Shown here one piece after another: positions 47,625-61,818 of a stretch of 64,000 nt of DNA (its first letter is position 1; each line of letters opens with the position of its first letter). The notes beneath the pieces are model-generated. The model was not told where the DNA came from, made no database searches, and was given only the letters and a program-made list of their open reading frames with translations. The stretch lies in contig JAGOVG010000001.1 of the NCBI GenBank assembly GCA_018060845.1, forward strand, positions 15,222 to 79,221, in the 5' to 3' direction. The DNA is from Candidatus Woesebacteria bacterium (GTDB lineage: Bacteria > Patescibacteriota > Microgenomatia > UBA1400 > UBA12108). The translations under genes and the position numbers were made by a program.

Positions 47625-48050
47625 ATGTTATACTCTTACCTTATGATTAACTATGAGCTATATACCCATACTCAGACTCCTGAACTAGTGACGTATGTTC
47701 TGCTCCCTTATACATGGACCGAAGACATTACCACAACTAGCTTTGTTCAGGCTAGGCGTGTCGCATCTGCTCTAATGTGTATTGATGATCTTAATTCAGT
47801 GAGTGAGGGAAATGGAGCTGGGACAGCACTACTAAATGCTATAGCTGTTTGGGGCATGAGTCGTGGACTGGATAAAATTACGGGTAGTGTAGTAACTAGA
47901 GATGGATTTTACGAGGCCCTCGTGAAATGGTACGGAAAACGTGGACTCAGTGTGCAGAATGGGTGGCTAGTGGGCGAGACAAGTGAAGTACGAGACATGA
48001 CTGCAGAAATATTGCACGCACATAACGTAGAGTACAAGATTGCTACTTAA
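47625..48050 (+). CDS. Possible GNAT-like acetyltransferase
   Basis: Weak motif A-like GNGAGTALL. Confidence 0.35.
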   Translation: MLYSYLMINYELYTHTQTPELVTYVLLPYTWTEDITTTSFVQARRVASALMCIDDLNSVSEGNGAGTALLNAIAVWGMSRGLDKITGSVVTRDGFYEALVKWYGKRGLSVQNGWLVGETSEVRDMTAEILHAHNVEYKIAT

Positions 48051-48133: not shown

Positions 48134-48161
48134 CCCCCTCCCTACAATCGCAGGGAGGGGG
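48134..48161. promoter_or_regulatory. Very stable GC hairpin (10-bp stem CCCCCTCCCT/AGGGAGGGGG) at the left edge of the AT-rich island
   Basis: Lies between convergent genes. No adjoining U-tract on either strand. Confidence 0.4.
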
Positions 48162-48170
48162 TGTTAGGCC

Positions 48171-48368
48171 TTACTTACTCCTGTTATATGGAGATTGATT
48201 TGTTGGCTTGAGTGAAACACCTATATGACCAGCTCTTGACTGAACTGCGTCTGGTGTCCGACCAAGCTTAAGACCGATGACTCTAGTAGGCGTATTCTGC
48301 CTTACTAGTGATCTAAGTTGTGACTCCTGTGAAGAAGTCCAAGGTTTATTGTTATTTTTGGGTGACAT
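48171..48368 (-). CDS. Small GcrA-N-terminal-like HTH protein
   Basis: WTSSQESQLRSLVRQNTPTRVIGLKLGRTPDAVQSRAGHIGVSL follows the GcrA N-terminal pattern W-T-xE-x3-L-...-IA-x2-LG-x-T-x-NAV-x-gK-x-hRLGL. SD GGAGCT precedes the start. Confidence 0.45.
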   Translation of the reverse strand: MSPKNNNKPWTSSQESQLRSLVRQNTPTRVIGLKLGRTPDAVQSRAGHIGVSLKPTNQSPYNRSK

Positions 48369-48530
48369 AATAGCTCCTTATATTTGCCTTCTACCCACCA
48401 GAGAGAGCTTGCTAAAAATTTAATAGTGTAGAATACTAGTCTTGATGTAGAACTGAGAGGAGTGAGTAATTCATTCCTCTCTTTTCGTATTCTGTCGCCA
48501 ATTGTTTTTTGGCATGTTTAATCCTTTGGC

Positions 48531-48558
48531 TACAAAAACCTCCCTTAACCGGGAGGTT
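48531..48558 (-). terminator. Rho-independent terminator ending the hsdR-to-ORF150 operon
   Basis: On the minus strand: CCTCCC-ggttaa-GGGAGG followed by TTTTTGT, about 135 nt downstream of the ORF150 stop. Confidence 0.55.
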
Positions 48559-48692
48559 GCCTTGTTCCCGCTTAAGCGGTTGTGGTGATTAAGAATTACT
48601 TCGCGTCATCATAACTTGAAAACTATCCTAACGAATATTACACATACCATGCAACCACTAGATCTATATCAAAGTAGTGCAACTTAATTTCT

Positions 48693-49145
48693 TCATCCTG
48701 AAATATCTACAATCGCTTTAACTCTGTTTTTGTCGACCCTGTGTATCTGGATGGCCTTACGATTGGCAGATATTTCCATTGCGAGGCGATTAAGGATGTA
48801 CATACGGATATTTTTCTCAGTCATATCCTCATATTTCACAGTCGTAACTAGGTAATTATTTATAGTTTGTACATCTTCAACAGTCACCTTGAAATGTTTT
48901 GAGGTTGTATTCTCATAATCTAGAGCATTATGAATGAGTCTAGCGTTGTACCAGTTGCCATACGACTCAAATACGTTATATGTGAATTCTCCGGGGAAGA
49001 GGTCGTTTAGTGATTTAAGAAAGTCAACAGTTTTTCGAAGAACTATAGACTTTGCTAGTTGAAAAACCTGCTCTATGAATCTAAATACCCAAACCATTGC
49101 ATCCACTATTGGATCACTAGGCTCTTTAATCTTCTTTTTCTTCAT
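48693..49145 (-). CDS. Hypothetical protein (last gene of the R-M-linked operon)
   Basis: ORF with 20-nt overlap to the FtsK-gamma gene. No recognised motif. Confidence 0.4.
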   Translation of the reverse strand: MKKKKIKEPSDPIVDAMVWVFRFIEQVFQLAKSIVLRKTVDFLKSLNDLFPGEFTYNVFESYGNWYNARLIHNALDYENTTSKHFKVTVEDVQTINNYLVTTVKYEDMTEKNIRMYILNRLAMEISANRKAIQIHRVDKNRVKAIVDISG

Positions 49146-49479
49146 ATTTTCTTAGAACATCTCTAGGTTTTACTCCCTCTGCCTTACTAACGACCCCTTC
49201 TTTTTCTAGTTTTTCCATAATCATTGCTGCTTTGTTGTATCCATGTGACATACGGCGTTGTAGGTATGACACACTGGCTTTGCCTGCGTCAGATATGACT
49301 CTCCATGCCTCGTTATATTCTTCATCAGCTATCGTAGTAAAGGGATTTGCGTAAGGAATATCAATTTCATCTTCATCTTCTCTTGGCTCGGTATAAAGTA
49401 AATAAGCCACCATCTTCTCGAGGATTAATACACGATTGGTTAATTCATCTACTTGCTTCATTAATTGATCATCGCTCAT
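49126..49479 (-). CDS. Standalone FtsK gamma-domain (winged-helix) protein
   Basis: C-terminal 58 aa EEYNEAWRVISDAGKASVSYLQRRMSHGYNKAAMIMEKLEKEGVVSKAEGVKPRDVL align almost residue-for-residue with the FtsK C-terminus at 345-2480 (ASTSFLQRKMSLGYNKAARIMDQLETAGVVGQQEGAKPRTIL). Confidence 0.75.
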   Translation of the reverse strand: MSDDQLMKQVDELTNRVLILEKMVAYLLYTEPREDEDEIDIPYANPFTTIADEEYNEAWRVISDAGKASVSYLQRRMSHGYNKAAMIMEKLEKEGVVSKAEGVKPRDVLRKYEEKED

Positions 49480-49487
49480 ACGCCTCC

Positions 49488-50163
49488 TTAGAATGGTAAA
49501 TCACTCTTAGTATTCCGATACCTTTCATTAACATGCCGATACTTACAAAACCGGCAATCCTCATTCTCATTGGGGATTGGGCCAGTGATGAGCGTATTGA
49601 TCTCATCCATAAATTTGGTGAAAGATGACTCGTCGATTGGGACTTCGAGCCACTTGGGTGGGAAAGTTAGAGTGGCAACTCCATTATCGAACTTTACCTG
49701 ATCGGGATACATGACAATAAGACCCATTTGGGTGATGCGAATTGGTTCGTCATGCCTGGGATGTTCCATGGCGAATTTGTAGGAATAGAGCTGGGTCTTA
49801 TATTTATCGATTTTGTCCACATGTGGCTGAGATAGCTTAAAGTCTACTAAAAGATATGTACCATCTCGACGTTTAACTAGTAGGTCATATTTGCCTTTGA
49901 GATACAGCTCTGTGCCGGGTATAACGATAGACTCCACAAATCCCCTCCTGCTTCTCAACGATTCCCTCTGGTAGACTTGGGGATAGGGCACGCAACTCTT
50001 TACCAACTAGCGTTCCTTGTAAGCGAGTATTGATAGCTGAGAAGATCCCTGGCATGGGCATTTGAGGCCTCATAACCTGATCGTGGACTTTCATCCAATA
50101 ACATCGTTTACACTCTTCATATAAATAGGCAAAATCTGATGGAGAGAGTTTGCATTGATGCAT
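49488..50163 (-). pseudogene. Cas4-like/RecB-family PD-(D/E)XK nuclease with Cys cluster, interrupted by a 1-nt frameshift
   Basis: N-terminal ORF has SPSDFAYLYEECKRCYW (Cas4 YCPRrfY-type). C-terminal ORF, in another frame, has GKYDLLVKRRDGTYLLVDFKLS (D...D/ExK), TQLYSYKF (QxxxY) and a C-terminal CRFC. The two frames would join by deleting one C in the CCCC tract at 49942-49945. Confidence 0.65.
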
Positions 50164-50165
50164 AG

Positions 50166-50759
50166 TTATGAGTTCTTCTCTCGTATCTCTTCCTCTAAGG
50201 ACTTCAATGTAGATTCAAATAGTGTCATAAATTCGTCAGTTTTCCCATTAGTTGCTCCGTACAATTCCATCCAAAGCCCTTCTGCATCTTTATTGCCGAT
50301 TCTATTAGTCGGATCGTCCCATTTAGATTCGTAAAAGATTTCAAAATCTATTGCATATCTTTTTATCAGGTCTAGGATTGATTGAATGTATTTAGTTTTA
50401 TCTTTTCCCCATAAGGCGTCGGCTCTGAGCTTTAATATTCTGAGATGACTATTAGTTTCTATTACGTCATTAAGTCTTGCTGCATGTTCACTGTAATGTG
50501 CATCACGTTGTTTTTCCACATCCTTCATAATATCTTGTTGATATCTATAAAATCTTCCTCTCGCATGTATGAGCTTTTCTTCTATCTCATACACACATTC
50601 CATAATTTCAAGTGATAATTTGTATTCATCTTGACCTTTTACTTGCTTCTTCCATGTTGACAACCCTTGATACGCTATCCATACTCCAAAACCTACTAGG
50701 AGAGAGTTAACTAATTCTAGATTTAACATGTTTAATAGACATGGTAGATTAATTAACAT
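50166..50759 (-). CDS. Hypothetical protein with N-terminal TM helix, directly downstream of hsdMS
   Basis: Lies 4 nt after the hsdMS stop. N-terminal hydrophobic helix (LVNSLLVGFGVWIAYQGL), then a charged helical domain with no recognised motif. Confidence 0.45.
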   Translation of the reverse strand: MLINLPCLLNMLNLELVNSLLVGFGVWIAYQGLSTWKKQVKGQDEYKLSLEIMECVYEIEEKLIHARGRFYRYQQDIMKDVEKQRDAHYSEHAARLNDVIETNSHLRILKLRADALWGKDKTKYIQSILDLIKRYAIDFEIFYESKWDDPTNRIGNKDAEGLWMELYGATNGKTDEFMTLFESTLKSLEEEIREKNS

Positions 50760-50763
50760 ATCA

Positions 50764-53163
50764 TCATTCTGACCATAAATTAGATAAAAGTAAATCTACT
50801 TTTTGCTCATATATTTCAACTAGTTGTCGCACGTTATCGACTAACATATATTCTGAATTAATATTTTTAATTATTTCGATTTGAGTTTCAGCCGAGGGAA
50901 AAGGTACTTCAATATCTTCTATTTGAGATTTACTTATTGAATCAAATACTGCACCTCCGTTTCCTACTATTTCCTTTTCAATCATTTTCAAATATGTAAA
51001 TAAAAACATCTGATTTATCTTTATTGGTTTTATTGCTGCCAGACCTCTCCCTATACAGATTTGTTCTGTAGTAATGTTTACGGGTCCAACAGGTGCTCGA
51101 ACTGACATCAGAATATCACCCTTATCTGCAACCTTAGATGTTTTTGTAGTCCACTTCGTAGGCTTCCGTAGATAGACATCTCCAAATTCTGTTTTGCCTT
51201 GATAAAATGCCATCCCTTGCTCAGAATCGTTATAATACTTTCCTTCTGGTGATTGGCCTGCAATAACATTAGCAACTTCGTGTAATTTGACTTTATTCCA
51301 AAGCTTATTAATTTCTATACTAGGTTTCCAATTATTTTTTATTAGCAGAGCCCCATTTATAATTTTCTGATAATTATCTATCTTTGCAACGATTTGATCC
51401 TGAATTTCAATTGATGGTAAGGGTATATTAAACTGTCCTAAATCACTAGTTTTCATTGTTACATTTGCTGCTCCACTCATCAATTTCGCCATTTCCTTCT
51501 TAACACTATTTAATACGTAATACAGGTATTTAGTATTCAATTGGCTCGCATCAATGGGCACTAGCAGAGCTAATAAATTAGCAAGAGCAAACTTTCCTGT
51601 TGTGTAATGTATCCTCTTTATATCGGCTTTCCCGTGTCCCGTTGCGGAAATTAGAGGAACAGCAACTCCTTCGCCCTCAAAATCAAAATGATCTGATGAT
51701 TTTATTATTTCTGCAGTTAAATATAATTTGTATGGACCATTTTCAGTTTTAGTGCTTGATGACTTTCCTTTTACTATTGTGCAAATTTCCGCTAAAGGTA
51801 CATACTTAATATCTGTACTTACAACATCTCTTTTTTTATATTTTAATAATGAAAGATTATAGTTATTATTTATTATTTCTTGTTTATTTATAATTGAAGA
51901 TAAGTGATTAGGTTTGATTTTCGTACTACTTTGGTAAGCTTTAATTATTTTGAGAGCAACTTCTAAATCGTTTTCTTTTATAATTTTTTGAGTTGCGCCT
52001 AGACTTACTCCAGTGCTATGGATATCTATAAATATAAGGTTGTCATTCAGATTATTAAGAGCCTTATCAAAAACTAATATAGAAGTTTTTACTCCTGAAT
52101 ATGGTTGAAATACTCCACTTGGAAGACTAATGACAGCATACAATCCATCATTAATAAGATTTTTACGTAACTCAGTATGGGATTTTCCAGTTTGGAAAAT
52201 AATACCTTCTGGAACAATAATTGCAGCTCTCCCGTTTGGCTTTAAATGATTCATTATGTAGTCAACAAACAATACCTCTGAACGACTAGATTGAATACTG
52301 AATTTGCTGTGTGGAGTAATTCCTCCTTTTGGAGACATGAAAGGAGGATTGGCTAAGATAACATCAAACTTATCATTCCAACGTTCATCTTGTGACAGTG
52401 AGTCGTACTGAAATATTTTTGGGTTCTTAAATTGATGAAGATACATATTTACCTGAGCTATACGGACCATCCCTGGATCAATATCATATCCTTCAAAGTT
52501 ACCCATCATTTTCCTGCGCTCGTCAGGTGTTAGCGCTTTTTCTTTCTTATCTGGATCATTTTTCCCATCATGCTTCTCAAGTATGTGAAGGAAGGATTTG
52601 ATTAAGAATCCTCCTGTCCCACAAGCTGGGTCTAGCACCTTATCATCCTTAGTTGGATTTACAACATCTACCATGAAATCAATAATGTGTCGTGGAGTTC
52701 TAAACTGTCCGGCGTCCCCTTGACTAGACATGATTGAAAGTAGATATTCGTAGGCATTGCCAAGCTCTTCTGGATGAGAGTAATCAAAGAATCCTATTTC
52801 TTTAAGAAATAGTCCTAGTGTTTCTGGTGAACGATATGGTAAAAATGCAGATTTGAATATGCCTCTAAATAACTCTGGGAGCTGTTTAGATTCGGAGAAC
52901 TTAACTAATGCCTCGGCATATAAATTCATTCTCTCCTGATTACCGAGCCGTGAGTCCATAATTCTAGTCCATGCGTATTTCTCTAGGTCACCGACAAAGA
53001 AGGCTGGCTCTCCACCTACTTTCACCGAAGCTTGATCTATATCGTCCATGAACTTGTAGATTAGAGCAGTAGTGATTTGATCAATCTGAGATGTCGGATT
53101 GGGAACCACCCCTACAAGCACTTGTCGTGCCGCGTCTATATGTCTTTTAGTGTCTGTATTCAT
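50764..53163 (-). CDS. hsdM: Type I R-M fused methyltransferase-specificity subunit (HsdM-HsdS fusion)
   Basis: HsdM_N helices, motif I DPACGTGGFL, motif IV ILANPPF. Two HsdS-type TRDs follow, each ending in a conserved spacer helix (LPLPSIEIQDQIVAKID; VPFPSAETQIEIIKNINSEY). Confidence 0.85.
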   Translation of the reverse strand: MNTDTKRHIDAARQVLVGVVPNPTSQIDQITTALIYKFMDDIDQASVKVGGEPAFFVGDLEKYAWTRIMDSRLGNQERMNLYAEALVKFSESKQLPELFRGIFKSAFLPYRSPETLGLFLKEIGFFDYSHPEELGNAYEYLLSIMSSQGDAGQFRTPRHIIDFMVDVVNPTKDDKVLDPACGTGGFLIKSFLHILEKHDGKNDPDKKEKALTPDERRKMMGNFEGYDIDPGMVRIAQVNMYLHQFKNPKIFQYDSLSQDERWNDKFDVILANPPFMSPKGGITPHSKFSIQSSRSEVLFVDYIMNHLKPNGRAAIIVPEGIIFQTGKSHTELRKNLINDGLYAVISLPSGVFQPYSGVKTSILVFDKALNNLNDNLIFIDIHSTGVSLGATQKIIKENDLEVALKIIKAYQSSTKIKPNHLSSIINKQEIINNNYNLSLLKYKKRDVVSTDIKYVPLAEICTIVKGKSSSTKTENGPYKLYLTAEIIKSSDHFDFEGEGVAVPLISATGHGKADIKRIHYTTGKFALANLLALLVPIDASQLNTKYLYYVLNSVKKEMAKLMSGAANVTMKTSDLGQFNIPLPSIEIQDQIVAKIDNYQKIINGALLIKNNWKPSIEINKLWNKVKLHEVANVIAGQSPEGKYYNDSEQGMAFYQGKTEFGDVYLRKPTKWTTKTSKVADKGDILMSVRAPVGPVNITTEQICIGRGLAAIKPIKINQMFLFTYLKMIEKEIVGNGGAVFDSISKSQIEDIEVPFPSAETQIEIIKNINSEYMLVDNVRQLVEIYEQKVDLLLSNLWSE

Positions 53164-53165
53164 AT

Positions 53166-55742
53166 TTATAGATTAGTTAAGTTGTACGCGTAATCGTGAA
53201 TGTATTGTGGTACAACAGTTGAGTATCCATTTAACCTCTGGTACTCATCAAAAGTAAAGCTCGATTCGGTGTTAAATCGCCCAACTTGGCGACTTGCGAC
53301 GATTTCTCTCACCTTTTCATCAGATGCATAGGCTTTGAAGTACATTTTTACGGCGTCGTAGTGTTCTTGGTCAACTGGGTTAACCTCCATAAACTTGCCC
53401 CATTCAGACTCTAATAGGTCATCTTTCATCTCAAAAGCATCTTTGTCTCCAAATGCTACCTGAAGGAATTCTTTGACAGTAATGCGTCTATCGACACTAA
53501 ATATCTTTCTTATTTTGTCTAGGTTGAGGAAATGTTTTGGCTTATCAAAGATATTCTTCTTAGCAAAATCTTCTGCTGCCTCAATGTCACCATTCTCCCA
53601 CATATTTTTGAGAGTTTTGTTTCCAAGCACATCTTCGTCAATCGCACGCTTGAATCCTTCTCTATCAATCTTCATTCCCTCCACCCCGATTGCAGTCTCA
53701 GCGACTGAGACAACTTCATCTCTAGTAGCAAGATCGATGGGACCGTTAAATACTTTGTGACCATTTTCATCTACATAGTCGCTACTAGATGATACTTCAA
53801 CACCAATCTCAGTGACGGGAACTTTTTTGATGTTTGGTAATTTTATCTTTTCGTCATACTCAAATTCTTTTTCAAAATATTCACAAGTAGCGAAGAAATC
53901 AAAGAACTTAAATTGTTTTTTGGGGATCGAGATTGTTTCGTTATTGGTGTAGTCGTGATAGTCGAAGGAGTATTTCCTAGTTCCACGCCCCTTAATCTGT
54001 ACAAAATCGGCAGGACTAAAGACTGGGCGCATCAGAGCAATGTTAAGCAGATCCTGACAATCGTAGCCAGTCGTCATCATTCCGACTGTTACGGCTACGC
54101 GAGTTTTACTTGTATCGTATCCTTCTGGACTTTTAATCTGTCCACCAAGCTTATTATTTGCAAAGTTGATTGTCATTTGTTGTGCACTTTGAACTTGAGA
54201 AGTAACTTGTACTGCAAAGTCTGACTCACTATAAAGCTTTGGCCATTTTTCCATTGCTAGTTTATTGAGAATATTTGTGACGTGAGCCGCATGGCGCTGC
54301 GATACGCAGAATACGATAGATTTACCAAATAGCTGAATGTCGAACTTACTAGCAATAGGATCGAAGAACCCGTTATCAAGAAATGCTTTGGACATGGCAA
54401 TATTTGTTTCTTCATTAAAGAACTTACGCTCGTAGTGACGCTCATTAAAGACCTCGTCAATACTTTCGCCGTCTTCTCCGGTTGTGTGGACTGAATACCC
54501 TTCACCAGATAAAAGTTGAGTTGTGATCTCGGTGCGAGCATCAACTACCGTAGGTTGGATTAAATAGTCTTCTTTCGAACCCTGAACGAGATCATATGAG
54601 AAGGTTGGGTTGCCAGACTCACAGCCGAAGGTTTTATATGTATCCAGAAGAAGTCTTCGTTCGTATTCTCTTTGACTATCGTTGCTTTCACCGCTATCCA
54701 GCCCTTTTAGATAATTCTTGGGTGTAGCAGTAAGTCCAAGCTTATATCCGACAAAATATTCAAATACAGCCCGACTATTTCCTCCGATTGAGCGGTGAGC
54801 TTCGTCAGATATCACAAGTTCAAAGTCGGTAGGAGAGAAATCCTTTCGATACCTATTGCCAGAAAGAAAAGTTTGAATTGTTGAAACAACGACACTTGCA
54901 TTTTGCCAGCTATCTTTTGTATTTTTGTATATTGCACAAGTAAAATCTTTGCCTAAATACTGGATAAAGGCTTTGTTTGCTTGGTCTTCAAGTTCTAGGC
55001 GATCTACTAGGAATAGTACTCTCCTTGCATTCCCAGATTTGAGGAAGAGCTTAATAACTGCGGCAGAAATTAGGGTTTTTCCTGTTCCTGTTGCCATCTC
55101 GAAAAGAAATCTTTGATTACCTTCTAAAGCAGATTGTTGAAGTGCCTTTAGAGCTTGAACTTGATATGGACGAAGTTGTTTAAGATTGTGTTTCTTGAGA
55201 TATGACGAACGAGTATTCTCATCTATAAATTCAGGAACTCTCGAATAATCTGGCATTTGAGTTGAGATAACATAGTTCGCATCAACGCTAGTGTTAGCTA
55301 GCTCTTCTGGGTCTGGAGTGTATTTCTGGTACTGACTGATTGAATCTTGAGTTGGGAATCGAGAGATTGTATCGGGGTTTCCATGTTTCGTATCCCAAAA
55401 ATAGTGAATATTCCCATTTGAGAGAATAATAAATCGAGCTCCGCAATTACGTGCGTAGTTACGAGCTTGCTCTTTGGCAGATAATGGGTCGACTGACTCT
55501 TTCTTTGCCTCTACTACGAGAAGTGGTCGTCCATCCTTATCTAACAAAAGGAAATCAATAAAACCATGCACTTCATGTTCAAAGTCATCTCCTAGCTCGG
55601 AGTACTTAATTCCTGGTTCGAGCTGAATGTTAGCTTTTCCGAGACTATTATCTACAAATCTCCAACCTGATTCCTCGAGAAGTTTATTTATTTTTATCCG
55701 AGCTTGAGCCTCTTTTTGCACCATGAGAGTATTGTACCCCAT
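53166..55742 (-). CDS. hsdR: Type I restriction endonuclease R subunit
   Basis: N-terminal PD-(D/E)XK (GFIDFLLLDKDGRPLLVVEAKKE), SF2 motor motifs (EMATGTGKT; VISDEAHRS), C-terminal helical domain. Starts 3 nt upstream of the hsdMS start. Confidence 0.9.
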   Translation of the reverse strand: MGYNTLMVQKEAQARIKINKLLEESGWRFVDNSLGKANIQLEPGIKYSELGDDFEHEVHGFIDFLLLDKDGRPLLVVEAKKESVDPLSAKEQARNYARNCGARFIILSNGNIHYFWDTKHGNPDTISRFPTQDSISQYQKYTPDPEELANTSVDANYVISTQMPDYSRVPEFIDENTRSSYLKKHNLKQLRPYQVQALKALQQSALEGNQRFLFEMATGTGKTLISAAVIKLFLKSGNARRVLFLVDRLELEDQANKAFIQYLGKDFTCAIYKNTKDSWQNASVVVSTIQTFLSGNRYRKDFSPTDFELVISDEAHRSIGGNSRAVFEYFVGYKLGLTATPKNYLKGLDSGESNDSQREYERRLLLDTYKTFGCESGNPTFSYDLVQGSKEDYLIQPTVVDARTEITTQLLSGEGYSVHTTGEDGESIDEVFNERHYERKFFNEETNIAMSKAFLDNGFFDPIASKFDIQLFGKSIVFCVSQRHAAHVTNILNKLAMEKWPKLYSESDFAVQVTSQVQSAQQMTINFANNKLGGQIKSPEGYDTSKTRVAVTVGMMTTGYDCQDLLNIALMRPVFSPADFVQIKGRGTRKYSFDYHDYTNNETISIPKKQFKFFDFFATCEYFEKEFEYDEKIKLPNIKKVPVTEIGVEVSSSSDYVDENGHKVFNGPIDLATRDEVVSVAETAIGVEGMKIDREGFKRAIDEDVLGNKTLKNMWENGDIEAAEDFAKKNIFDKPKHFLNLDKIRKIFSVDRRITVKEFLQVAFGDKDAFEMKDDLLESEWGKFMEVNPVDQEHYDAVKMYFKAYASDEKVREIVASRQVGRFNTESSFTFDEYQRLNGYSTVVPQYIHDYAYNLTNL

Positions 55743-55898
55743 AGCGGCAACATCTCAGATTGCTCGGGCAACTTTGAAGATGACAATCGCCAACTTACTG
55801 TGAAGGATGTTGTTTCTAAAGATGAGGTTGGCCTAGCCTGCCACAAATGATTTAGGAGATCAGTGGCAAATGCTTCAGTACTAACAGCCACAGCTGAC

Positions 55899-55922
55899 CA
55901 TTTTGTCGGCGTCGACAAAATG
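55899..55922. promoter_or_regulatory. Palindromic operator-like site 1 upstream of hsdR (CATTTTGTCGGCGTCGACAAAATG)
   Basis: 24-bp inverted repeat with one mismatch. It sits inside a roughly 50-nt unit (TGACCATTTTGTCGGCGTCGACAAAATGATATTTGAC) that is repeated 90 nt downstream. Confidence 0.6.
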
Positions 55923-55988
55923 ATATTTGACGGGTTGATCGCTCCTTTTAAAGGATTCTTATGCACACAATATAGAGGATTGACCAAC

Positions 55989-56012
55989 CATTTTACCGGC
56001 GCCGGTAAAATG
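55989..56012. promoter_or_regulatory. Palindromic operator-like site 2 (CATTTTACCGGCGCCGGTAAAATG), a perfect 24-bp palindrome
   Basis: Second copy of the unit (TGACCAACCATTTTACCGGCGCCGGTAAAATGGTTTTTGAC). Half-site CATTTT(A/G)(C/T)CGGCG. Confidence 0.6.
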
Positions 56013-56031
56013 GTTTTTGACTGATTATCTG

Positions 56032-56286
56032 CTATTTTCTTGGATTTAGTATTAAGAACTCTAGAGCTCTCCACAGAGTACCAATAAAGCCGCTGTCTGT
56101 ACATTTTGCGGCACGCATTAGAGACTCGACGGCATCGTGTTGTGGAGGGAGACTAACCCCAGGTTCTGAGGGTACGCGAGTCTTTAACTCGTGCTCTAGG
56201 AGCTGTCTCGCAAAACAAAAACCTAACCAGGTACAGGTATCTGGATTTGGACATGTTGGTGAAATCTTAAATTCTGATTTGGTCAT
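56032..56286 (-). CDS. Hypothetical small Cys-containing protein
   Basis: ORF only; it lies downstream of the 285-aa ORF and immediately before (higher coordinates) the palindromic sites, which sit between it and hsdR. Confidence 0.3.
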   Translation of the reverse strand: MTKSEFKISPTCPNPDTCTWLGFCFARQLLEHELKTRVPSEPGVSLPPQHDAVESLMRAAKCTDSGFIGTLWRALEFLILNPRK

Positions 56287-56301
56287 CTATGTTGCTTGAT
56301 G

Positions 56302-57159
56302 TTATTGGGGTACGCACTCATAGAGATCTTGACACATTGTTAGTAATGCGTGTGCGTTTGCAGCTACTGGGTTATTTGATGCTTTCATTTCGTATTTCAA
56401 AGAATTTGCTACCATTTGATCATAAGAAGCAAATTGATAATCTTTAAGTGGAGTGGGATCAAATATTCCATCTTCCCTGAAAGTAGCTGCTCGATACAGT
56501 TGTCTTACTTGCCATAATATTGCGGCTTGTCGCATACCAAGTATTGCAGTGTGAGCAACAGATGGTTCAAGTTGGACATCTCTACACCCCTTACTCTGCA
56601 TTACTGTATATGATCGCTCTAGTGCACGAAAAAGCGAGTCTCTATATTCAGTAGCATTTTTATCACTAATCTTTCTGTGAGTTGCTTCTTTTAGTGTTTG
56701 GATTGTTGGTGTCACTCGTACAGCGTTAGGGTCTATTCTAAATAATTCGGTTTCTAATACTGACAGTGGGGTGTTTACAATTGCCTGAGATGGCCCACCT
56801 GAAGAGCAGATATTTGTTGAACCAACTAGGTGAAGTAAACGTATTTTCGATAGTTCGCCTGGAGTTCTTTTAATTGTATTCTTTAGAATAGTATTCAGGT
56901 GCGCATCGTTTAGTGCATCTTTAAAATTACCACCTTTGCCATAAAATTGATAAACTCTACTCGAGAAAGTATTTACAGTTTCTGCAAGAGCTAAAGTGAG
57001 TTTCTCGCTTAATTCAGGTCTATTTATCGCTGCTGCTGCTTGTTCAGCTGCTATCACTAACATGGATGAAGTTACTCGATACATGAAGTGTTTCACTGTT
57101 TCAAAAGACTCAGGGCCAAGTCTAATGTTGCTGTATACCGCTTCGTGATCTATAGACAT
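56302..57159 (-). CDS. Hypothetical 285-aa protein between the RecD-like helicase and the R-M locus
   Basis: ORF with no recognised motif. Looks AT-richer than the helicase genes. Confidence 0.45.
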   Translation of the reverse strand: MSIDHEAVYSNIRLGPESFETVKHFMYRVTSSMLVIAAEQAAAAINRPELSEKLTLALAETVNTFSSRVYQFYGKGGNFKDALNDAHLNTILKNTIKRTPGELSKIRLLHLVGSTNICSSGGPSQAIVNTPLSVLETELFRIDPNAVRVTPTIQTLKEATHRKISDKNATEYRDSLFRALERSYTVMQSKGCRDVQLEPSVAHTAILGMRQAAILWQVRQLYRAATFREDGIFDPTPLKDYQFASYDQMVANSLKYEMKASNNPVAANAHALLTMCQDLYECVPQ

Positions 57160-57195
57160 TCTTGGTATTATAGGATAAATGGCTGAAATTTCAAG

Positions 57196-58503
57196 CTAGA
57201 GGATGGTACTGGTTTCGCGCATTAAAGTGAGCCAAGAGGTCACGGTCGGATCCATGATGACGTGGCGGTGGGTGAGCTCGCGGCGGAGATAGACGCCAGC
57301 GAGACTGGTTGCGCGTGATAGTGCGACATAAGTCTGGCCATGGGCAAAGGACTGAGGTAGGTCGATGATGACTCGGTCAAAAGTCTTCCCCTGTGCTTTG
57401 TGGATGGTAACTGCCCAAGCGAGCATAAGCGGGAGCTGGGTGTAGGTGCCGACCACGTCGCTACTGATCCGACGTGATTTTTCGTTGTAGTCAAAACTAA
57501 ACATCTCCCAGGTAGTTGGGGCGACGTCAACGAGCTTTTTGTTTTTGAGCCTGACTGAGACTATAGGCAGGCTATTCTCCCAGTCGATTTCCTCGACCCT
57601 GCCAACTGTCCCATTAACATACCTCTTCTCCCTATCGTTTGCCGTCAGCATAACCTGTGCCCCGATCTTGAGGGTTAACTCGCGAGGAGCTGGTTCGGTA
57701 CGATTATCAAACTTCCCGGTTGCGATCGCAAAAAAATCGTGGCTCTTGCCACTTAGGCTATTTAGCTGATAGTCGTTGTAGTCACCGGCGGTTTTGTTGG
57801 TACCGGTTAGGTTGATCACATACTCCTCGGGAGGTGGCGCATAGTCGGGAGAGACGCGGGTATTTAGAAGATCTAGGTGGGAGCTATTAAGTTTCCCCTC
57901 GCGTAGCGCATTTAGGACCTCGATAAACTCGGCATCACTCTGTCTATAGATATGGTCGAGTTCGATAAAGGTAAGTGCTAGGCGAGACATCACGTCGGCA
58001 CTAAAGAAAAAAGGTGAAGAGTAGCGAGCACGAAAAACCTCTGCCTCCATATATGGTACGACGGGTGGGAGCTGATAGAGGTCGCCAAAGAAAATCATCC
58101 GCTTGCCACCGAACGGGCGAGAGCTCATGCAGACCCTACGCAAGAAAGCATCGATACAGTCTAGGAGATCGGCTCGGACCATACTGATCTCGTCGATGAT
58201 GACTAGATTTAGGTTTTTATAGAGTTCGGATTTTTTGGTTTTGCCACCTAAGCTCCAAGCTTTGTCGATTGTGATGTTGGGTTTAAAACCAAAGAAGCTA
58301 TGAATGGTGGCACCACCCACATTGACTGCCGCCACTCCGGTGGGAGCCAAGACTACATGGGACTGCTCGGTGCTCTTGTGAAAGTAAGTAAGGAGCGTGG
58401 ACTTGCCTGTCCCTGCCCGACCAGTGATAAAGAGGTGGTCGCTACCGTGCTCTAAGAGCTCTAGGGTTTGTTTAAATATTGGAGAGAGCTCAATGTTAGA
58501 CAT
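57196..58503 (-). CDS. RecD/PIF1-like SF1B DNA helicase (short form)
   Basis: Motif I FITGRAGTGKST, Ia VLAPTGVAA, II VIIDEISMV, and a C-terminal SH3-like/2B region (AVTIHKAQGKTFDRVII). Confidence 0.8.
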   Translation of the reverse strand: MSNIELSPIFKQTLELLEHGSDHLFITGRAGTGKSTLLTYFHKSTEQSHVVLAPTGVAAVNVGGATIHSFFGFKPNITIDKAWSLGGKTKKSELYKNLNLVIIDEISMVRADLLDCIDAFLRRVCMSSRPFGGKRMIFFGDLYQLPPVVPYMEAEVFRARYSSPFFFSADVMSRLALTFIELDHIYRQSDAEFIEVLNALREGKLNSSHLDLLNTRVSPDYAPPPEEYVINLTGTNKTAGDYNDYQLNSLSGKSHDFFAIATGKFDNRTEPAPRELTLKIGAQVMLTANDREKRYVNGTVGRVEEIDWENSLPIVSVRLKNKKLVDVAPTTWEMFSFDYNEKSRRISSDVVGTYTQLPLMLAWAVTIHKAQGKTFDRVIIDLPQSFAHGQTYVALSRATSLAGVYLRRELTHRHVIMDPTVTSWLTLMRETSTIL

Positions 58504-58524: not shown

Positions 58525-61500
58525 TTAAGCGAGCAAGTCAATTTCGAATGATTTGGTGCCCTGGAGGTTCTTGCTATATTTGTCGGTTATTGGGAGGTCT
58601 AAGGCCTGGATCTTGCCCCAAACTACCCCTATCAGTTTTTTGATCTCTTGCTCTTCTGCCTCATTAAACTGAATACTGAGCGGTGCAATGATATCACCGC
58701 TCCTTAGATCTGTGGGCTCGACAAACTCTAGCCGAGCCTCAGTTACTTTGTAGCTCCTCCAAGTGTAACTACCCTCTATAAGGAATTTGTAGAAATATAA
58801 TTGATGCTTGTATTTGTAGGCTTTCATTGAGGATTCCCATTTGGGGAGAGGCTGACCAGTTTTGAAGTCTACAATACGCAGAGTTTTGTTAACTTGATCA
58901 ATCTCTAGTCTATCGATCTTGCCGGTCAATCTAGCATCACCAATACAGACTCCCTCACTATAAAAGTTTACCTCTGTCTGAGCACTCTGGCTAAACATAT
59001 CTCCACGGCTAGTTAGATACTTTTGAAGTACTACACTACCCCGACTAAGTAAGTGATCCTTATCATGCTCGCTTAAGAAGCGATGATTTAGCTCTACACT
59101 ATAGTGAGTCAGTACCTCGGCCATCTCTGGTTTTTTACTGCTTAAAATCTGTTGCTGATACCACTCTAAGGTATTGTGGATCGCTAAGCCATATTCACTA
59201 TCCGGAGTTGGGGCGCTCGGGAAGCGTAGCAGTGTCCGCATCAAAAACTCTTCGGGACCGCTGTGCTCTAGATCCATAAAGGTATTGAGGTGGGTGGGAC
59301 TCATGACGTAGCTGTCCAGGTGCTCACTCAGGAGGTCACGAAAATCGACCGGGAGCGTAACTCGGCCGGCGCTCCAGAGAGTGGCTACATCACGAGCTAA
59401 GTCATCTGAGCTATGCTCTGTAGTCACAATATTCTGTGAAGATAACGGTAAGTGTGGTGAGACACCGTCAACCTCACCCAAGTATTTGAGAGGAGTGGTT
59501 GGTTTGCCGTTATCGTGACTCGAATGTGAGGAAATATAGAGGCCGTAGCGGGAGCGGGTGATGGCAACAAAGAAGAGTCGCAGCCGCTCGTCATCACCAC
59601 TATGGGTATAGCGGATATGGCTCAGATTGGGTGGGAGGGAGAGCTTGGACCCGCCGCCGCGACTGGCACTACCCCAGACATCGTCGTGCGCCTGCAAAAT
59701 AAAGACGTGATCAAACTCGAGCCCCTTGGCTTTGTAGGCTGTCATGAGCTGGACACTACTTAACCCCTGTGCGACAGGATGTGAGTTAATCAGTCCCTCG
59801 CCAGCCGATTCGTACATCGCAAAAAAGTCGAGAAAGTCGGTGAGCGTCAAGCTATGGTCACTACTATTTTGATATTCCCTCAGGTGTGAGCGAATAATAC
59901 TTAGATGTGTGATCGCTTCGTAGTATTTGACTGCATCAACCGAGCGCATTTCTATGGCAAAGTAGTGAGACTTAAGAGGAGTCTCGGTAATTAGCTGGTC
60001 AAGGATAGATTCGAGCGGTGTAGTTGCTACTGCACCACTGAGAGTGAGATAAAAATTAACTGCCTCTGATAATGCATTATTCTCGAGCGCGATCTCGGCC
60101 CAGGCTCTCTTTTCTTCTTTTTTGGCAAACTGCCAGTTGGTACGCCATACCTCGACCACCGGGATACCCCAGTATGGTTGAGACAAAACCTGAGGAAAGT
60201 ATTCGTTTATCTTTGAGCGATTATTAGTCCAAAGCGCGTCGAGTAGTAGTGCTGATTGGTGAAGGATTTTGACTATTTCGGTATCCAGGATGTTCTCACG
60301 CTTTTCGTAGGTTAAGGGGACTCCCAGTTGCTTGAGGAACGGCACCATATTCTCTAGTAGTTTGTGTTTGGGAGCAATGACTGCAACCTCGCTGGGTTTG
60401 GTGCCACGCTTAATTAACTCGTCGATCTGACGAGCGACCCATGAATACTCTGCTGCCTCGGATACAAAATCATTGCGCATAATATTGGAGCTGGGAGGGA
60501 GTGCGTCGCTACTCTCAACTAGTAATTTGTCGATACCCTCTAGCTTGGTATGCAATCGACCACTAATCTGACTGGCGATGTTCTGGGCAACGTGTAGTAC
60601 GTCGCGGTGTGAGCGATAGTTGTTGACTAGGTTGATAACCTGCACTTCACGAAATGATTCTAGAAAATCTTGGATGTTGCCGATGTTCGCACCCTGAAAA
60701 GCAAAAATGGCCTGGTCATCATCTCCTACTGCCATCACGTTGGGTCGACCCTCGTGGACAGGGTGGTCTGCTATCCGCTTGACCAGCTCGAACTGTGCGG
60801 GGTTGGTATCCTGGAACTCGTCGAGGAGGATATATTGATAGCGTTCCTGCAGGTTAAACCTTAGTTCGTCATTATTTTTAAGACCCTCGATTGCGCGGAT
60901 GATCATGTCATTAAAATCGTAAGATGCCTCTACTCTGAGAGCTTGCTCATACGACTCGTAGATGCTTGAGAGATCGACCATTTTTTCGCTGGTCGCGCGC
61001 TTGGTTAATGTAAATTTATCTTTATCATCTTTGTGTAACCAAGCGTTCTTCCATTTGGTTAGGGGAGTGGAAGTGCTACTCTCCTCATATTCATCAAATG
61101 CAAGTTTTAACCCACCTGCTGCTTGCTCGACCAAACTACCACTAAGAGCGGACAAGCGCTCGAGCAATGTCGCATACTGGCTTGGCCACTGATCTTTTTT
61201 GCGCGAGATACCACCCACCTGGTTAATCACCTCATCGATGACTATCTGAGCGGAGTCGATCTGATGGAGGTTGTTAATACCTAGTTCATAGAGTGCTTGT
61301 GGAGTTATTAAGTTTTTTTTGAGATCGCTAATAGTACTCACCACATCTTTGACAAAGTAGCGGGCAGAGAGGAGTGAGCTATCAAATGGTAGCTTACCGA
61401 GGATCGCTTCGACTATCCGGATTTGAGATAACTCATCGATCGCTCGCTCGAGCCTAACATCATCCGTTCGATCTAGCCCTATCTGCTGAAAGTATTCACT

Positions 61501-61818
61501 GTGGCTCTTTATGATGTCGCTACCAAAACTGTGGTAGGTACTAATAGTCACCTCGTAGGCGGCCTCACCAATAAACTCCCTGAGGCGACGACGCATATTG
61601 GCGGCACCGGACTCGGTAAAAGTGAGACAGAGGATGTTGCTGGGTGCAATATCCGTTAGCTTTAGAATATTGGCGACACGAGCGGAGAGGAGCTGGGTCT
61701 TGCCAGTACCAGGACCAGCAAGTACGAGGAGCGGGCCATCGATCGTATCGACTGCCAGTTTTTGCTCTTTGTTTAGATTGTTGTAGGCGGTCGCAAAGGA
61801 TGATTTGTAGTCTGTCAT
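58525..61818 (-). CDS. RecB/AddA-like UvrD-family helicase fused to a C-terminal PD-(D/E)XK nuclease
   Basis: Helicase motifs VLAGPGTGKTQLL, LLDEFQDTNP, YKAKGLEFDHVFIL, VAITRSR. C-terminal nuclease GKIDRLEID...LRIVDFKTGQ plus QLYFYKF. Confidence 0.85.
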   Translation of the reverse strand: MTDYKSSFATAYNNLNKEQKLAVDTIDGPLLVLAGPGTGKTQLLSARVANILKLTDIAPSNILCLTFTESGAANMRRRLREFIGEAAYEVTISTYHSFGSDIIKSHSEYFQQIGLDRTDDVRLERAIDELSQIRIVEAILGKLPFDSSLLSARYFVKDVVSTISDLKKNLITPQALYELGINNLHQIDSAQIVIDEVINQVGGISRKKDQWPSQYATLLERLSALSGSLVEQAAGGLKLAFDEYEESSTSTPLTKWKNAWLHKDDKDKFTLTKRATSEKMVDLSSIYESYEQALRVEASYDFNDMIIRAIEGLKNNDELRFNLQERYQYILLDEFQDTNPAQFELVKRIADHPVHEGRPNVMAVGDDDQAIFAFQGANIGNIQDFLESFREVQVINLVNNYRSHRDVLHVAQNIASQISGRLHTKLEGIDKLLVESSDALPPSSNIMRNDFVSEAAEYSWVARQIDELIKRGTKPSEVAVIAPKHKLLENMVPFLKQLGVPLTYEKRENILDTEIVKILHQSALLLDALWTNNRSKINEYFPQVLSQPYWGIPVVEVWRTNWQFAKKEEKRAWAEIALENNALSEAVNFYLTLSGAVATTPLESILDQLITETPLKSHYFAIEMRSVDAVKYYEAITHLSIIRSHLREYQNSSDHSLTLTDFLDFFAMYESAGEGLINSHPVAQGLSSVQLMTAYKAKGLEFDHVFILQAHDDVWGSASRGGGSKLSLPPNLSHIRYTHSGDDERLRLFFVAITRSRYGLYISSHSSHDNGKPTTPLKYLGEVDGVSPHLPLSSQNIVTTEHSSDDLARDVATLWSAGRVTLPVDFRDLLSEHLDSYVMSPTHLNTFMDLEHSGPEEFLMRTLLRFPSAPTPDSEYGLAIHNTLEWYQQQILSSKKPEMAEVLTHYSVELNHRFLSEHDKDHLLSRGSVVLQKYLTSRGDMFSQSAQTEVNFYSEGVCIGDARLTGKIDRLEIDQVNKTLRIVDFKTGQPLPKWESSMKAYKYKHQLYFYKFLIEGSYTWRSYKVTEARLEFVEPTDLRSGDIIAPLSIQFNEAEEQEIKKLIGVVWGKIQALDLPITDKYSKNLQGTKSFEIDLLA

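Follow-up and report, generated by a model that had tools for sequence, protein, structure and literature searches.

Does the AT-rich island on this Candidatus Woesebacteria (Patescibacteria) chromosome encode one new defence system, a restriction-modification (R-M) system carried by a mobile element, or a set of genes that arrived by separate routes? In the 64-kb window, which is the whole stretch of DNA analysed, positions 48134–57190 have a GC content of 0.386 vs. 0.467 for the remainder, and a sliding GC profile places the start of the lowest-GC 9-kb window at 48001 (9-kb windows off the island: mean 0.466, sd 0.015, minimum 0.43). GC3 is 0.24–0.38 in the island genes vs. 0.52–0.59 in the flanking helicase genes. 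These values confirm the AT-rich stretch at about 48.1–57.2 kb that a sequence-only reading had seen by eye and support the foreign origin proposed for it. Six genes follow one another on the minus strand in the order hsdR, hsdMS, ORF197, a Cas4-like nuclease gene, an FtsK-gamma gene, and ORF150; their coordinates agree with the gene content and the spacing described earlier, from a 20-nt overlap to 8-nt gaps. This operon-like packing suggests that hsdMS and the genes downstream of it are co-transcribed. A terminator-like hairpin (48531–48558, minus strand; CCUCCC-GGUUAA-GGGAGG followed by U5) lies after ORF150, and its energy (dG −23.8 kcal/mol, z −3.4) together with the minus-strand T run behind it upholds the terminator called there; the list returned by a simple terminator scan does not include this position. 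We consider it fairly probable that the locus is a mosaic defence island, in which an acquired Type I core is combined with add-on cassettes, including an ancillary nuclease, that would share its transcription unit while travelling independently of the R-M genes and of each other.

The core of such a mosaic would be a horizontally acquired two-gene Type I R-M system consisting of HsdR and an HsdM–HsdS fusion. As in classical Type I systems, the restriction subunit encoded by hsdR (53166–55742, minus strand) combines an N-terminal PD-(D/E)XK nuclease with an SF2 motor. It matches Pfam HSDR_N_2 and ResIII and PADLOC REase_I (1e-53), and its translation shows the motifs VVEAKK, GTGKT, and DEAH. 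The nearest family to HsdR is EcoAI (type IB), although it scores far below the NCBIfam equivalog cut-off (207 vs. 550 bits). After a 2-nt gap, hsdMS (50764–53163, minus strand) encodes a single polypeptide of 799 aa, with an N6-adenine methyltransferase at approximately 1–450 and a specificity part at approximately 451–799 that contains two target-recognition domains. The protein matches Pfam N6_Mtase (1e-58), Methylase_S (in two stretches), and PADLOC MTase_I (5e-100) and Specificity_I, and the M and S chains of PDB 5ybb each align to it, bearing out the earlier call of a Type I-like R-M system with fused hsdMS; DPACGTGGF and NPPF are visible in the translation. The gamma-class N6-adenine methylase with its NPPF motif, the two target-recognition domains, and the presence of all subunits in one operon resemble classical Type I systems, whereas the fusion of M and S is at odds with the usual M2S1 assembly. 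Genes of the same hsdR and hsdMS families, including the M–S fusion, are located upstream of Cas4-like genes in two other loci (L033 and L077). Judging from its domains and motifs, the core would methylate self DNA and cut unmodified DNA after ATP-driven translocation.

The first of the putative add-ons, ORF197 (50166–50759, minus strand), begins after a 4-nt gap behind hsdMS. It has a hydrophobic N-terminal helix followed by a four-helix bundle, and may be a membrane-anchored protein; its family is large and unnamed and has the motif GL(S/T)TW(K/R)xQLKG. In the few contexts compared (n = 3), its close homologues always lie directly behind a restriction gene, a different one each time, and are not accompanied by the other accessory genes. 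Homologues with 50–54% identity, for example, are found in L005 after hsdM-hsdS-hsdR and in L004 after a GmrSD_N/AlbA_2 protein.

A 2-nt gap separates ORF197 from the Cas4-like PD-(D/E)XK nuclease gene (49488–50163, minus strand). The earlier reading was right about the presence and family of this gene but not about a single ORF, as one additional G within a run of Gs (C4 at 49942–49945 on the plus strand) splits it into two overlapping frames (49885–50163 and 49488–50006). The identical frameshift occurs in the independent assembly L002. The gene is unbroken in L008, L009, and L010, with an intact length of 224 aa, and a 99% relative carries it unbroken. Because the frameshift breaks it, the Cas4-like gene is decaying in this strain, and the role it has elsewhere is probably not exerted here.

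That role is best approached through the family, which comprises >771 clusters with identities of approximately 60% between candidate phyla radiation (CPR) classes and with invariant D93, DxK, Q..Y, and two CxxC pairs. Restriction genes detected with our own profiles were found upstream of the Cas4-like gene in 21 of 77 loci, all co-directional, and downstream in 2 (sign test by hand, approximately 3e-5). Among 79 CPR genomes, positions −1 to −4 are rich in ResIII (9+2), Eco57I (5+4), N6_Mtase (4+6), Methylase_S (2+4), Fic (5), GmrSD_N (3), Mrr_cat (3), and EcoRI_methylase (3), no neighbour is conserved across the set, and the +1 and +2 genes are unrelated housekeeping genes. In 56 of 75 loci, the gene upstream has the same direction, and in 21 it lies within 20 nt; genes at this distance include HsdR, methylases, HsdS, RhuM, Fic, DUF3800, and an EVE-nuclease. 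The Cas4-like family is thus typically the last gene of CPR restriction operons of many types, a placement that we describe here as new; R-M genes were detected upstream in only about one-quarter to one-half of the loci, and the link is therefore a tendency rather than a rule. All data are metagenome assemblies, and the genes of the compared loci were called by a crude longest-ORF method. The protein may act as an ancillary DNA-end-processing nuclease on the products of the co-expressed restriction enzyme, whichever its type, and its C-terminal D/E-I/L-P-F tail, which resembles an SSB tip, possibly docks it to partner proteins.

Instead of an ancillary nuclease, the Cas4-like protein could be the product of a DNA-repair gene that is functionally unconnected to restriction, with the space upstream of it serving as a landing site for foreign defence genes that become its neighbours by chance. 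The extreme variability of the upstream content would fit such a hot spot, as would the GC content of the Cas4-like segment (0.432), the highest among the coding segments of the island and surpassed only by the 55743–56301 gap (0.44). Solo-Cas4 genes have indeed been described as ordinary cellular genes with mostly vertical inheritance and no defined context (Hudaiberdiev et al. 2017, PMC5704561). The downstream genes are, however, also unconserved, and the Cas4-like gene is therefore not at a fixed chromosomal place. Its start and stop codons abut those of HsdR, methylase, and HsdS genes, and identities lack taxonomic structure (63.7% within Woesebacteria, not above the 66.2% between Woesebacteria and Berkelbacteria). 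Furthermore, the cassette is better conserved than its flank: compared to L010, it has 83%–91% nucleotide identity, whereas the flanking hydrolase reaches just 56% at the protein level. On balance, we regard the hot spot as rather unlikely.

The cysteine pattern of Cas4 is 1+3. The family described here has two CxxC pairs instead, and the protein scores below the cut-off of the Cas4 model (36 vs. 65 bits). With the solo-Cas4 and pfam12705 proteins it shares a nuclease core of the RecB type, cysteines at both ends, and an over-representation in small-genome CPR bacteria without CRISPR (PMC5704561), but it is a stand-alone protein of approximately 220 aa with an SSB-tip-like tail, and no sign of vertical inheritance was seen in this sample. 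In the same paper, pfam12705 UvrD–Cas4 fusions are tied to Type III R-M and Dcm–Vsr and proposed to be ancillary (PMC5704561); the genes with which the present family is associated are, in contrast, of Type I, IIG, and IV.

The two remaining genes may form a translationally coupled pair. The FtsK-gamma gene (49126–49479, minus strand) lies 8 nt behind the Cas4-like gene and encodes a protein of 117 aa in which an N-terminal helix, in our reading a coiled coil, is joined to a winged helix. The homology of this winged helix to FtsK gamma is clear: it scores 81 bits against Pfam FtsK_gamma (cut-off 30.6), matches the PDB gamma domains 2j5o and 2ve8, and shares 57% identity with the gamma domain in the host's FtsK at 393–566. 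Unlike the FtsK/Xer-dif machinery, it comes without a translocase motor and with no dif site or Xer gene nearby, and related cassettes do without it. Apart from the window's own strain, it follows the Cas4-like gene in L015 alone, while the closest cassettes (L009 and L010) have an unrelated 84-aa gene in its place. ORF150 (48693–49145, minus strand), which overlaps the FtsK-gamma gene by 20 nt, combines a helical hairpin with a ferredoxin-like domain, has a dN/dS of 0.076, and is the final gene of the cassette in every case, although its contexts are few (n = 4). At 71%–93% identity, it follows the Cas4-like and 84-aa genes in L009, where a PLD-SNF2 helicase and an Eco57I-type methylase precede them, and in L010, where no R-M genes are nearby; in L012 it comes after hsdS and a HEPN-like gene.

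Fic/DOC and RhuM genes can be embedded in Type I loci. The anticodon nucleases PrrC and RloC are likewise accessory genes in or appended to such loci (reviewed in PMC12707154). The small non-R-M genes of the island are similarly co-oriented and tightly packed with hsd, and add-ons vary by locus, with Fic, RhuM, and DUF3800 taking the same position in CPR loci; none of the four is homologous to PrrC, RloC, Fic, or RhuM. By analogy, ORF197 might be a membrane effector, and FtsK-gamma and ORF150 a TA-like pair, acting as PrrC-like guardians or abortive-infection genes that are triggered when R-M is inhibited. The location inside or behind restriction loci, the 20-nt overlap between a small DNA-binding gene and the next gene, the HEPN-like partner in L012, and a weak PADLOC PDC-S19 match of ORF150 agree with this. 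Yet Pfam, PADLOC, NCBIfam, and PHROGs searches found no similarity to known Abi or TA families, the fold matches of ORF150 and ORF197 are generic, and P0005 keeps ORF150 although most of the 84-aa partner gene is missing, so that we judge guardian functions improbable.

It is very unlikely that the six genes form an integrated defence system with the membrane protein, the second nuclease, the winged helix, and ORF150 as obligatory parts. Tight spacing and the single terminator would suit one, and all six genes are again found together in L001, L002, and L008; these three assemblies, however, which share the island, are mutually 99%–100% identical strains. The proposal of one new system fails because the accessory genes are separate or have other partners in all more distant relatives. 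Neither ORF197 nor ORF150 occurs in any of 79 Cas4-like loci, and one part is a pseudogene here. What stands of the suggested R-M linkage is that at least two accessory families, the close homologues of ORF197 and the Cas4-like family, adjoin restriction genes elsewhere, but not as a full co-inherited set. Hardly any weight can be given to the R-M genes as cargo of a mobile element, be it one that moves by Xer/dif recombination, as suggested earlier, with FtsK-gamma activating XerD, or one that uses another recombinase: the foreign composition, the stand-alone FtsK-gamma domain, and the differing chromosomal settings of the cassette are set against a lack of the dif core looked for (CATAA-N6-TTATG, absent from the whole window even with one mismatch allowed, an E. 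coli-type core from which CPR dif sites may differ), of direct or inverted repeats bracketing the island, of integrase or transposase domains in the island ORFs (Pfam, NCBIfam, and PHROGs), and of phage or plasmid relatives, and against the replacement of FtsK-gamma in L009 and L010.

Beyond the six genes, the island contains ORF285, an 84-aa ORF, two palindromic repeats, and a 65-aa HTH-like gene. ORF285 (56302–57159, minus strand; GC 0.389, GC3 0.25), an AT-rich gene at the upstream edge that is called in the source record, had no matches in Pfam, PADLOC, NCBIfam, PHROGs, or plasmids. Just upstream of it, the region has its best match to a sigma-70-like promoter (57167–57194, minus strand; TTGAAA-16-TATAAT, 11/12), where the island transcript may start; the match is to the consensus only, and the total number of matches in the scan equals the shuffle expectation. 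The 84-aa ORF (56032–56286, minus strand) is also called in the source record, is uncertain as a gene, and has no Pfam match on record. In the 289-nt gap before hsdR, two 40-nt direct repeats (55897–56026) are located 90 nt apart, and each has a perfect palindrome within it (CATTTTGTCG-GCGT-CGACAAAATG and AACCATTTTACCGGC/GCCGGTAAAATGGTT; folding dG −18.5 and −17.5). None are expected by chance, they were found in the same strain only, and they could be an operator or hairpin element. At the other edge, beyond the terminator, the 65-aa HTH-like ORF (48171–48368, minus strand) matches PHROG 323 (5.5e-9) and is followed by a strong G+C-rich hairpin of its own (48134–48165; dG −29.9, z −4.3). This ORF and ORF150 are conserved together in two other contigs, and positions 48135–48527 have 78%–80% nucleotide identity to L011 and L012.

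The stretch between positions 48134 and 57190 has a GC content of 0.386, compared to 0.467 in the remaining window, and the 9-kb window with the lowest GC content in the whole 64 kb starts at position 48001. For 9-kb windows outside the island, the mean GC content is 0.466 (sd 0.015, minimum 0.43), and GC3 is 0.24–0.38 in the island genes vs. 0.52–0.59 in the two helicase genes immediately upstream. This confirms the AT-rich island, which lies far beyond the local spread; the sliding GC profile is not flat, in agreement with what the sequence-only reading had noted by eye. The remaining window is ordinary chromosome, encoding LepA, HrcA-GrpE-DnaK, DnaJ, NusA, IF-2, S15, and PNPase, and no tRNA, Rfam match, or CRISPR-like array was found within the window.

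All island genes lie on the minus strand. Among the promoter-like sites in this region, the best (TTGAAA-16-TATAAT, 57194–57167) precedes ORF285 (56302–57159), which is followed by an 84-aa ORF and a 289-nt gap before hsdR. This gap contains two 40-nt direct repeats spaced 90 nt apart (55897–55936 and 55987–56026), each including a perfect palindrome. These repeats are unique in the window, seen in this strain only, and not expected by chance (0 expected); they could act as an operator or attenuator, or could be a remnant. Next come hsdR (53166–55742) and a fused hsdMS gene (50764–53163), and then the genes for ORF197 (50166–50759), the Cas4-like nuclease, the FtsK-gamma protein, and ORF150. 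The successive spacers from hsdMS to FtsK-gamma measure 4, 2, and 8 nt, ORF150 overlaps the FtsK-gamma gene by 20 nt, and a hairpin with a U run (48558–48531, dG −23.8) is located after ORF150. Both the tight same-strand spacing and the terminator are thus present as initially described. Beyond the terminator lie a 65-aa HTH-like ORF (48171–48368; PHROG 323, 5.5e-9) and a second strong hairpin (48134–48165).

The restriction-modification (R-M) core is of Type I character. HsdR contains the Pfam domains HSDR_N_2 (6.5e-10) and ResIII (5.8e-39) and matches REase_I in PADLOC (1.3e-53), and the ExK, GTGKT, and DEAH motifs in its translation indicate a PD-(D/E)XK nuclease joined to an SF2 helicase-like motor. 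The HsdM part of the fused gene (N6_Mtase, 1.1e-58; MTase_I, 4.8e-100) carries AdoMet-binding and NPPF motifs, and the HsdS part that follows has two target-recognition domains (two Methylase_S stretches; PADLOC Specificity_I at residues 451–603 and 621–776). The hsdMS product matches both the M and the S chains (S subunit 5ybb_D) of PDB entry 5ybb, and also the S subunit 3okg. In canonical Type I systems, M and S are separate polypeptides assembling as M2S1 (R2M2S1 with the restriction subunit), whereas the island encodes both in one 799-aa ORF. The "HsdMS" of Pseudomonas aeruginosa was considered as a precedent for this fusion and rejected, as it consists of two genes. The best named relative of HsdR is the EcoAI family (type IB), but its NF046051 score of 207 bits lies below the 550 bits required for this equivalog.

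Among 5.8 billion proteins searched, only three clusters matched ORF197. One homolog with 50% identity is located 105 nt after the hsdR of a canonical hsdM-hsdS-hsdR operon (locus L005), and another with 54% identity lies 7 nt downstream of a GmrSD_N/AlbA_2 protein (L004); homologs of the Cas4-like, FtsK-gamma, and ORF150 proteins are absent from both loci. A further contig (L007:1–555, compared with L005:9723) carries the identical ORF197 homolog and retains upstream of it only the final ~170 nt of hsdR, within which it departs from L005; a recombination breakpoint thus lies at the 3′ end of a restriction gene. A 212-aa membrane protein adjoining the L005 homolog was also considered as a family member, but has no detectable relation to ORF197. 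Searching 1.84 billion representatives with a profile expanded the family to 902 proteins (E ≤1e-3), all of ~200 aa. They share the motif GL(S/T)TW(K/R)xQLKG downstream of a hydrophobic N-terminal helix, and none of them has a Pfam or PADLOC match. The AlphaFold model of ORF197 (pLDDT 79) consists of a long N-terminal helix and a four-helix bundle, with generic fold matches only (four-helix sensor bundles, Z up to 12.6; none in BFVD at E 1e-3). ORF197 represents a family of membrane-anchored helical proteins (P0129–P0278) comprising at least 902 clusters at 50% identity. Its distant members, found at 44 metagenome loci with a 14-sequence alignment, occur in mixed variable regions with integrases (three cases), phage tail genes, and some R-M genes, and a methylase is located directly upstream in one locus only. 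These mixed contexts led us to reject the idea that distant members are found specifically behind R-M genes.

ORF150 has homologs in five clusters (60–93% identity), which occur with varying partners. In locus L009, the gene order is HTH, PLD-SNF2 helicase, Eco57I-type methylase, DUF3800-like, Cas4-like, an 84-aa gene, and ORF150. The last three genes are also found in L010, between a kinase and dCTP deaminases and with R-M genes absent nearby. The 84-aa protein of these cassettes is unrelated to the FtsK-gamma protein that precedes ORF150 in the window. The 169-aa homolog P0005 is an in-frame fusion of ORF150 to the initial 20 residues of the 84-aa gene, most of the 84-aa gene being deleted and ORF150 kept. 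In L012, the end of an hsdS gene is followed by a 251-aa protein (784–1539) with the sequence RNDNLGH, by our reading a putative HEPN-like protein (Rx4-6H), and then by ORF150 with a 14-nt overlap. The block of ORF150 and the 65-aa ORF has 78–80% nucleotide identity in L011 and L012, and a dN/dS of 0.076 for ORF150 (compared to L009) indicates purifying selection. Its AlphaFold model (pLDDT 79) comprises a helical hairpin and a ferredoxin-like domain, with generic fold matches only (ferredoxin-like GspL/M, PilO, and S6, Z up to 7.4; none in BFVD at E 1e-3).

Searches of Pfam, PADLOC, NCBIfam, and PHROGs placed two of the accessory proteins, FtsK-gamma and Cas4-like, and left ORF197 and ORF150 without a family; for these two and for ORF285, they returned weak noise only (PDC-S19, 5e-4; guanylate kinase, 6e-3). 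Viral-contig scans and phage/plasmid tblastn searches with ORF150 and ORF197 gave no match. The winged helix of the FtsK-gamma protein (49126–49479) scores 81.1 bits against a Pfam cut-off of 30.6 and also has matches in PDB. FtsK itself contains an alpha-beta translocase motor, whereas the island protein has 117 aa and no ATPase domain. It shares 57% identity over 58 residues with the gamma domain (393–566) of the host FtsK (ORF 345–2525), and may represent a captured copy that could compete for the same DNA motif or partner.

Accessory genes embedded in Type I loci are already known, with PrrC/RloC as examples (PMC12707154), and those of the island are likewise joined to a Type I locus, on the same strand and with 2–8-nt gaps. 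PrrC/RloC, however, have ABC-ATPase and anticodon nuclease domains, neither of which was found in the island ORFs (Pfam, PADLOC, NCBIfam). Considered as a candidate type II toxin–antitoxin pair, FtsK-gamma and ORF150 are two small overlapping genes, the first encoding a winged helix, and no homology to any toxin–antitoxin family was found in Pfam, PADLOC, NCBIfam, or PHROGs. From their position, a guardian or toxin–antitoxin-like role of ORF197 and of the FtsK-gamma/ORF150 pair is possible, the contexts available for ORF197 and ORF150 being few. The proposal that the R-M and accessory genes form one co-inherited system is unsupported, because the parts separate in every relative outside the same strain; there, they are found apart or have other partners. 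The suggestion that the R-M genes are cargo of a Xer-dependent element (IMEX) is likewise unsupported, as a search with the E. coli-type dif core alone (CATAA-N6-TTATG, up to one mismatch) found no site in the whole window, no repeats bracketing the island were found, and no island ORF has a recombinase domain (Pfam, NCBIfam, PHROGs). We favor reading the island as an acquired Type I-like R-M operon with independent cassettes attached to it, illustrating that tight operon packing in a defense island does not make its genes parts of one system.

The Cas4-like gene, which the sequence-only reading took as one gene, is split into two overlapping frames in the window. In an alignment of the window with four relatives, the window and an independent Logan assembly (L002) read GGAGGGGATT, and a 99% identical strain (L008) as well as L009 and L010 read GGA-GGGATT and have an intact ORF of 222–224 aa. 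The additional G shifts the frame by +1 relative to these intact relatives and breaks the reading frame; therefore, the gene is a pseudogene, or at best two fragments, in this strain, and the island is partly decayed. A programmed frameshift at the G4 run was judged unlikely, as the run is short and no slippery heptamer was seen.

Homologs of the intact protein form more than 771 clusters, mostly with ~60% identity, which are named PD-(D/E)XK nuclease or Cas4 (JGI). In the family alignment (A3), D93, D107-x-K109, Q124, and Y128 are invariant and correspond to RecB-type motifs (D, D/ExK, QxxxY). CxxC pairs are present at the N- and C-terminus in 119/119 members. This 2+2 arrangement differs from that of Cas4 (TIGR00372/COG1468), in which one N-terminal and three C-terminal cysteines bind an Fe-S cluster, and the protein scores below the Cas4 cut-off (TIGR00372, 36.4 vs. 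65 bits) and above that of Pfam PDDEXK_1 (37 vs. 22 bits). Cas4 proper is also adjacent to cas1/cas2 or a CRISPR array; the window has no tandem array or Rfam match, and cas families are absent from the 25 most frequent Pfam families among the neighbors at 79 Cas4-like loci. A PDB profile search with the alignment gave no match.

These 79 loci, all from MAGs, were obtained by scanning one genome per species, and their number is a lower bound because the scan requires one of two exact 8-residue motifs. About half of the locus titles name Patescibacteria-group lineages, and most others read, e.g., "uncultured Gammaproteobacteria". Titles such as the latter or "Bdellovibrionales" (L016, L017, L022, L024, and others) are probably taxonomic mislabels in third-party assemblies. 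No neighbor family is conserved across the loci. Counted per family and not per locus, the Pfam families at positions −1/−2 (140 proteins) include ResIII (9), Eco57I (5), Fic (5), N6_Mtase (4), GmrSD_N (3), Mrr_cat (3), and HNH (3), and those at −3/−4 (118 proteins) N6_Mtase (6), Eco57I (4), Methylase_S (4), EcoRI_methylase (3), and HTH_3 (3). At +1/+2 (134 proteins), families seen at least twice are RpoB, tRNA synthetases, a trypsin-like peptidase domain, a DUF433/DUF5615 pair, and the like, with R-M families absent among them. Using three profiles of our own (methylase, S domain, HsdR motor), we found R-M genes within six genes upstream in 21/77 loci, all co-directional, and downstream in two, for which a sign test calculated by hand gives ~3e-5. 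The gene directly upstream is co-directional in 56/75 loci and at most 20 nt away in 21, as determined from simple longest-ORF calls on metagenome assemblies, from which all sequences of this analysis derive. In L015, the hsdR stop of a different Type I system abuts the nuclease start, and an FtsK-gamma gene follows. In L033 (52% and 41% identity) and L077 (56% and 54%), hsdR and hsdMS of the same family as in the window precede the nuclease gene, separated from it by different small genes. Other tightly joined upstream partners are RhuM, DUF5655, an EVE-PDDEXK protein, Fic, HD, and DUF3800.

The Cas4-like family thus stands out as conserved, devoid of taxonomic structure (63.7% identity within Woesebacteria, 66.2% between Woesebacteria and Berkelbacteria), and terminal in several types of restriction operons, after which unrelated housekeeping genes follow. 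This pattern fits better with a gene traveling or working with restriction systems than with a fixed anchor gene, and the asymmetry, tying one well-conserved family to many restriction operon types, provides a testable hypothesis. Relatives were not found in phage/plasmid tblastn searches, and a viral-contig scan gave one match of 25% only.

A further feature is the C-terminal D/E-I/L-P-F of 57/119 full-length members (DIPF 28, DLPF 13, EIPF 9, ELPF 7; P0009–P0128), and the copy in the window (49488–49560) ends with SDLPF. By resemblance, this end appears SSB-like, the C-terminal tip of bacterial SSB being DDDIPF (PMC5872125); a CPR SSB in L005 (11972–12466) ends with DDIPF. We propose that the nuclease processes restriction-made DNA ends, by analogy with Cas4 and AddB-type nucleases, whose exonuclease activity is known (PMC5704561), and that its tail docks it to proteins reading the SSB tail.

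CPR bacteria mostly lack CRISPR systems and are thought to depend on restriction systems. It is possible, albeit rather unlikely, that the CPR Cas4-like family is a general and portable post-restriction module that docks via an SSB-like tail and resects the ends left by restriction. As the last gene of the operon, such a module would combine with whichever restriction enzyme is present, be it Type I, IIG, or IV, its D/E-I/L-P-F tail would bind the usual SSB-tail readers, and the resected ends would be passed on to destruction, nucleotide salvage, or recombination. If true, this would give the solo-Cas4 of small-genome bacteria a defined role, the function of the widespread stand-alone genes in CPR having been an open question since 2017 (PMC5704561). 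Cas4-like nucleases of pfam12705 were previously linked to Type III R-M and Dcm-Vsr (PMC5704561); the family described here differs from these and the solo-Cas4 in being a stand-alone nuclease with 2+2 cysteines, an SSB-like tail, and links to Types I, IIG, and IV. Differences from known systems are the M-S fusion, such a nuclease with its restriction links, and the two unnamed families ORF197 and ORF150 defined here, which neighbor restriction genes or occupy other variable regions.

The island is flanked upstream by genes of normal GC content for a Pif1/RecD-like helicase (57196–58503) and a 1097-aa UvrD with a C-terminal PD-(D/E)XK domain (58525–61818). UvrD–Cas4-like fusions have been reported to adjoin R-M systems (PMC5704561), and the pairing of these helicase genes with the Cas4-like gene is not conserved among the 79 loci. 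Further AT-rich dips with small accessory genes occur in the window at ~10–11 kb, with a YafQ-type toxin near 10.5 kb, and at 18–23 kb, with a SocA_Panacea-like gene and an AAA_18 kinase near 21–22 kb.
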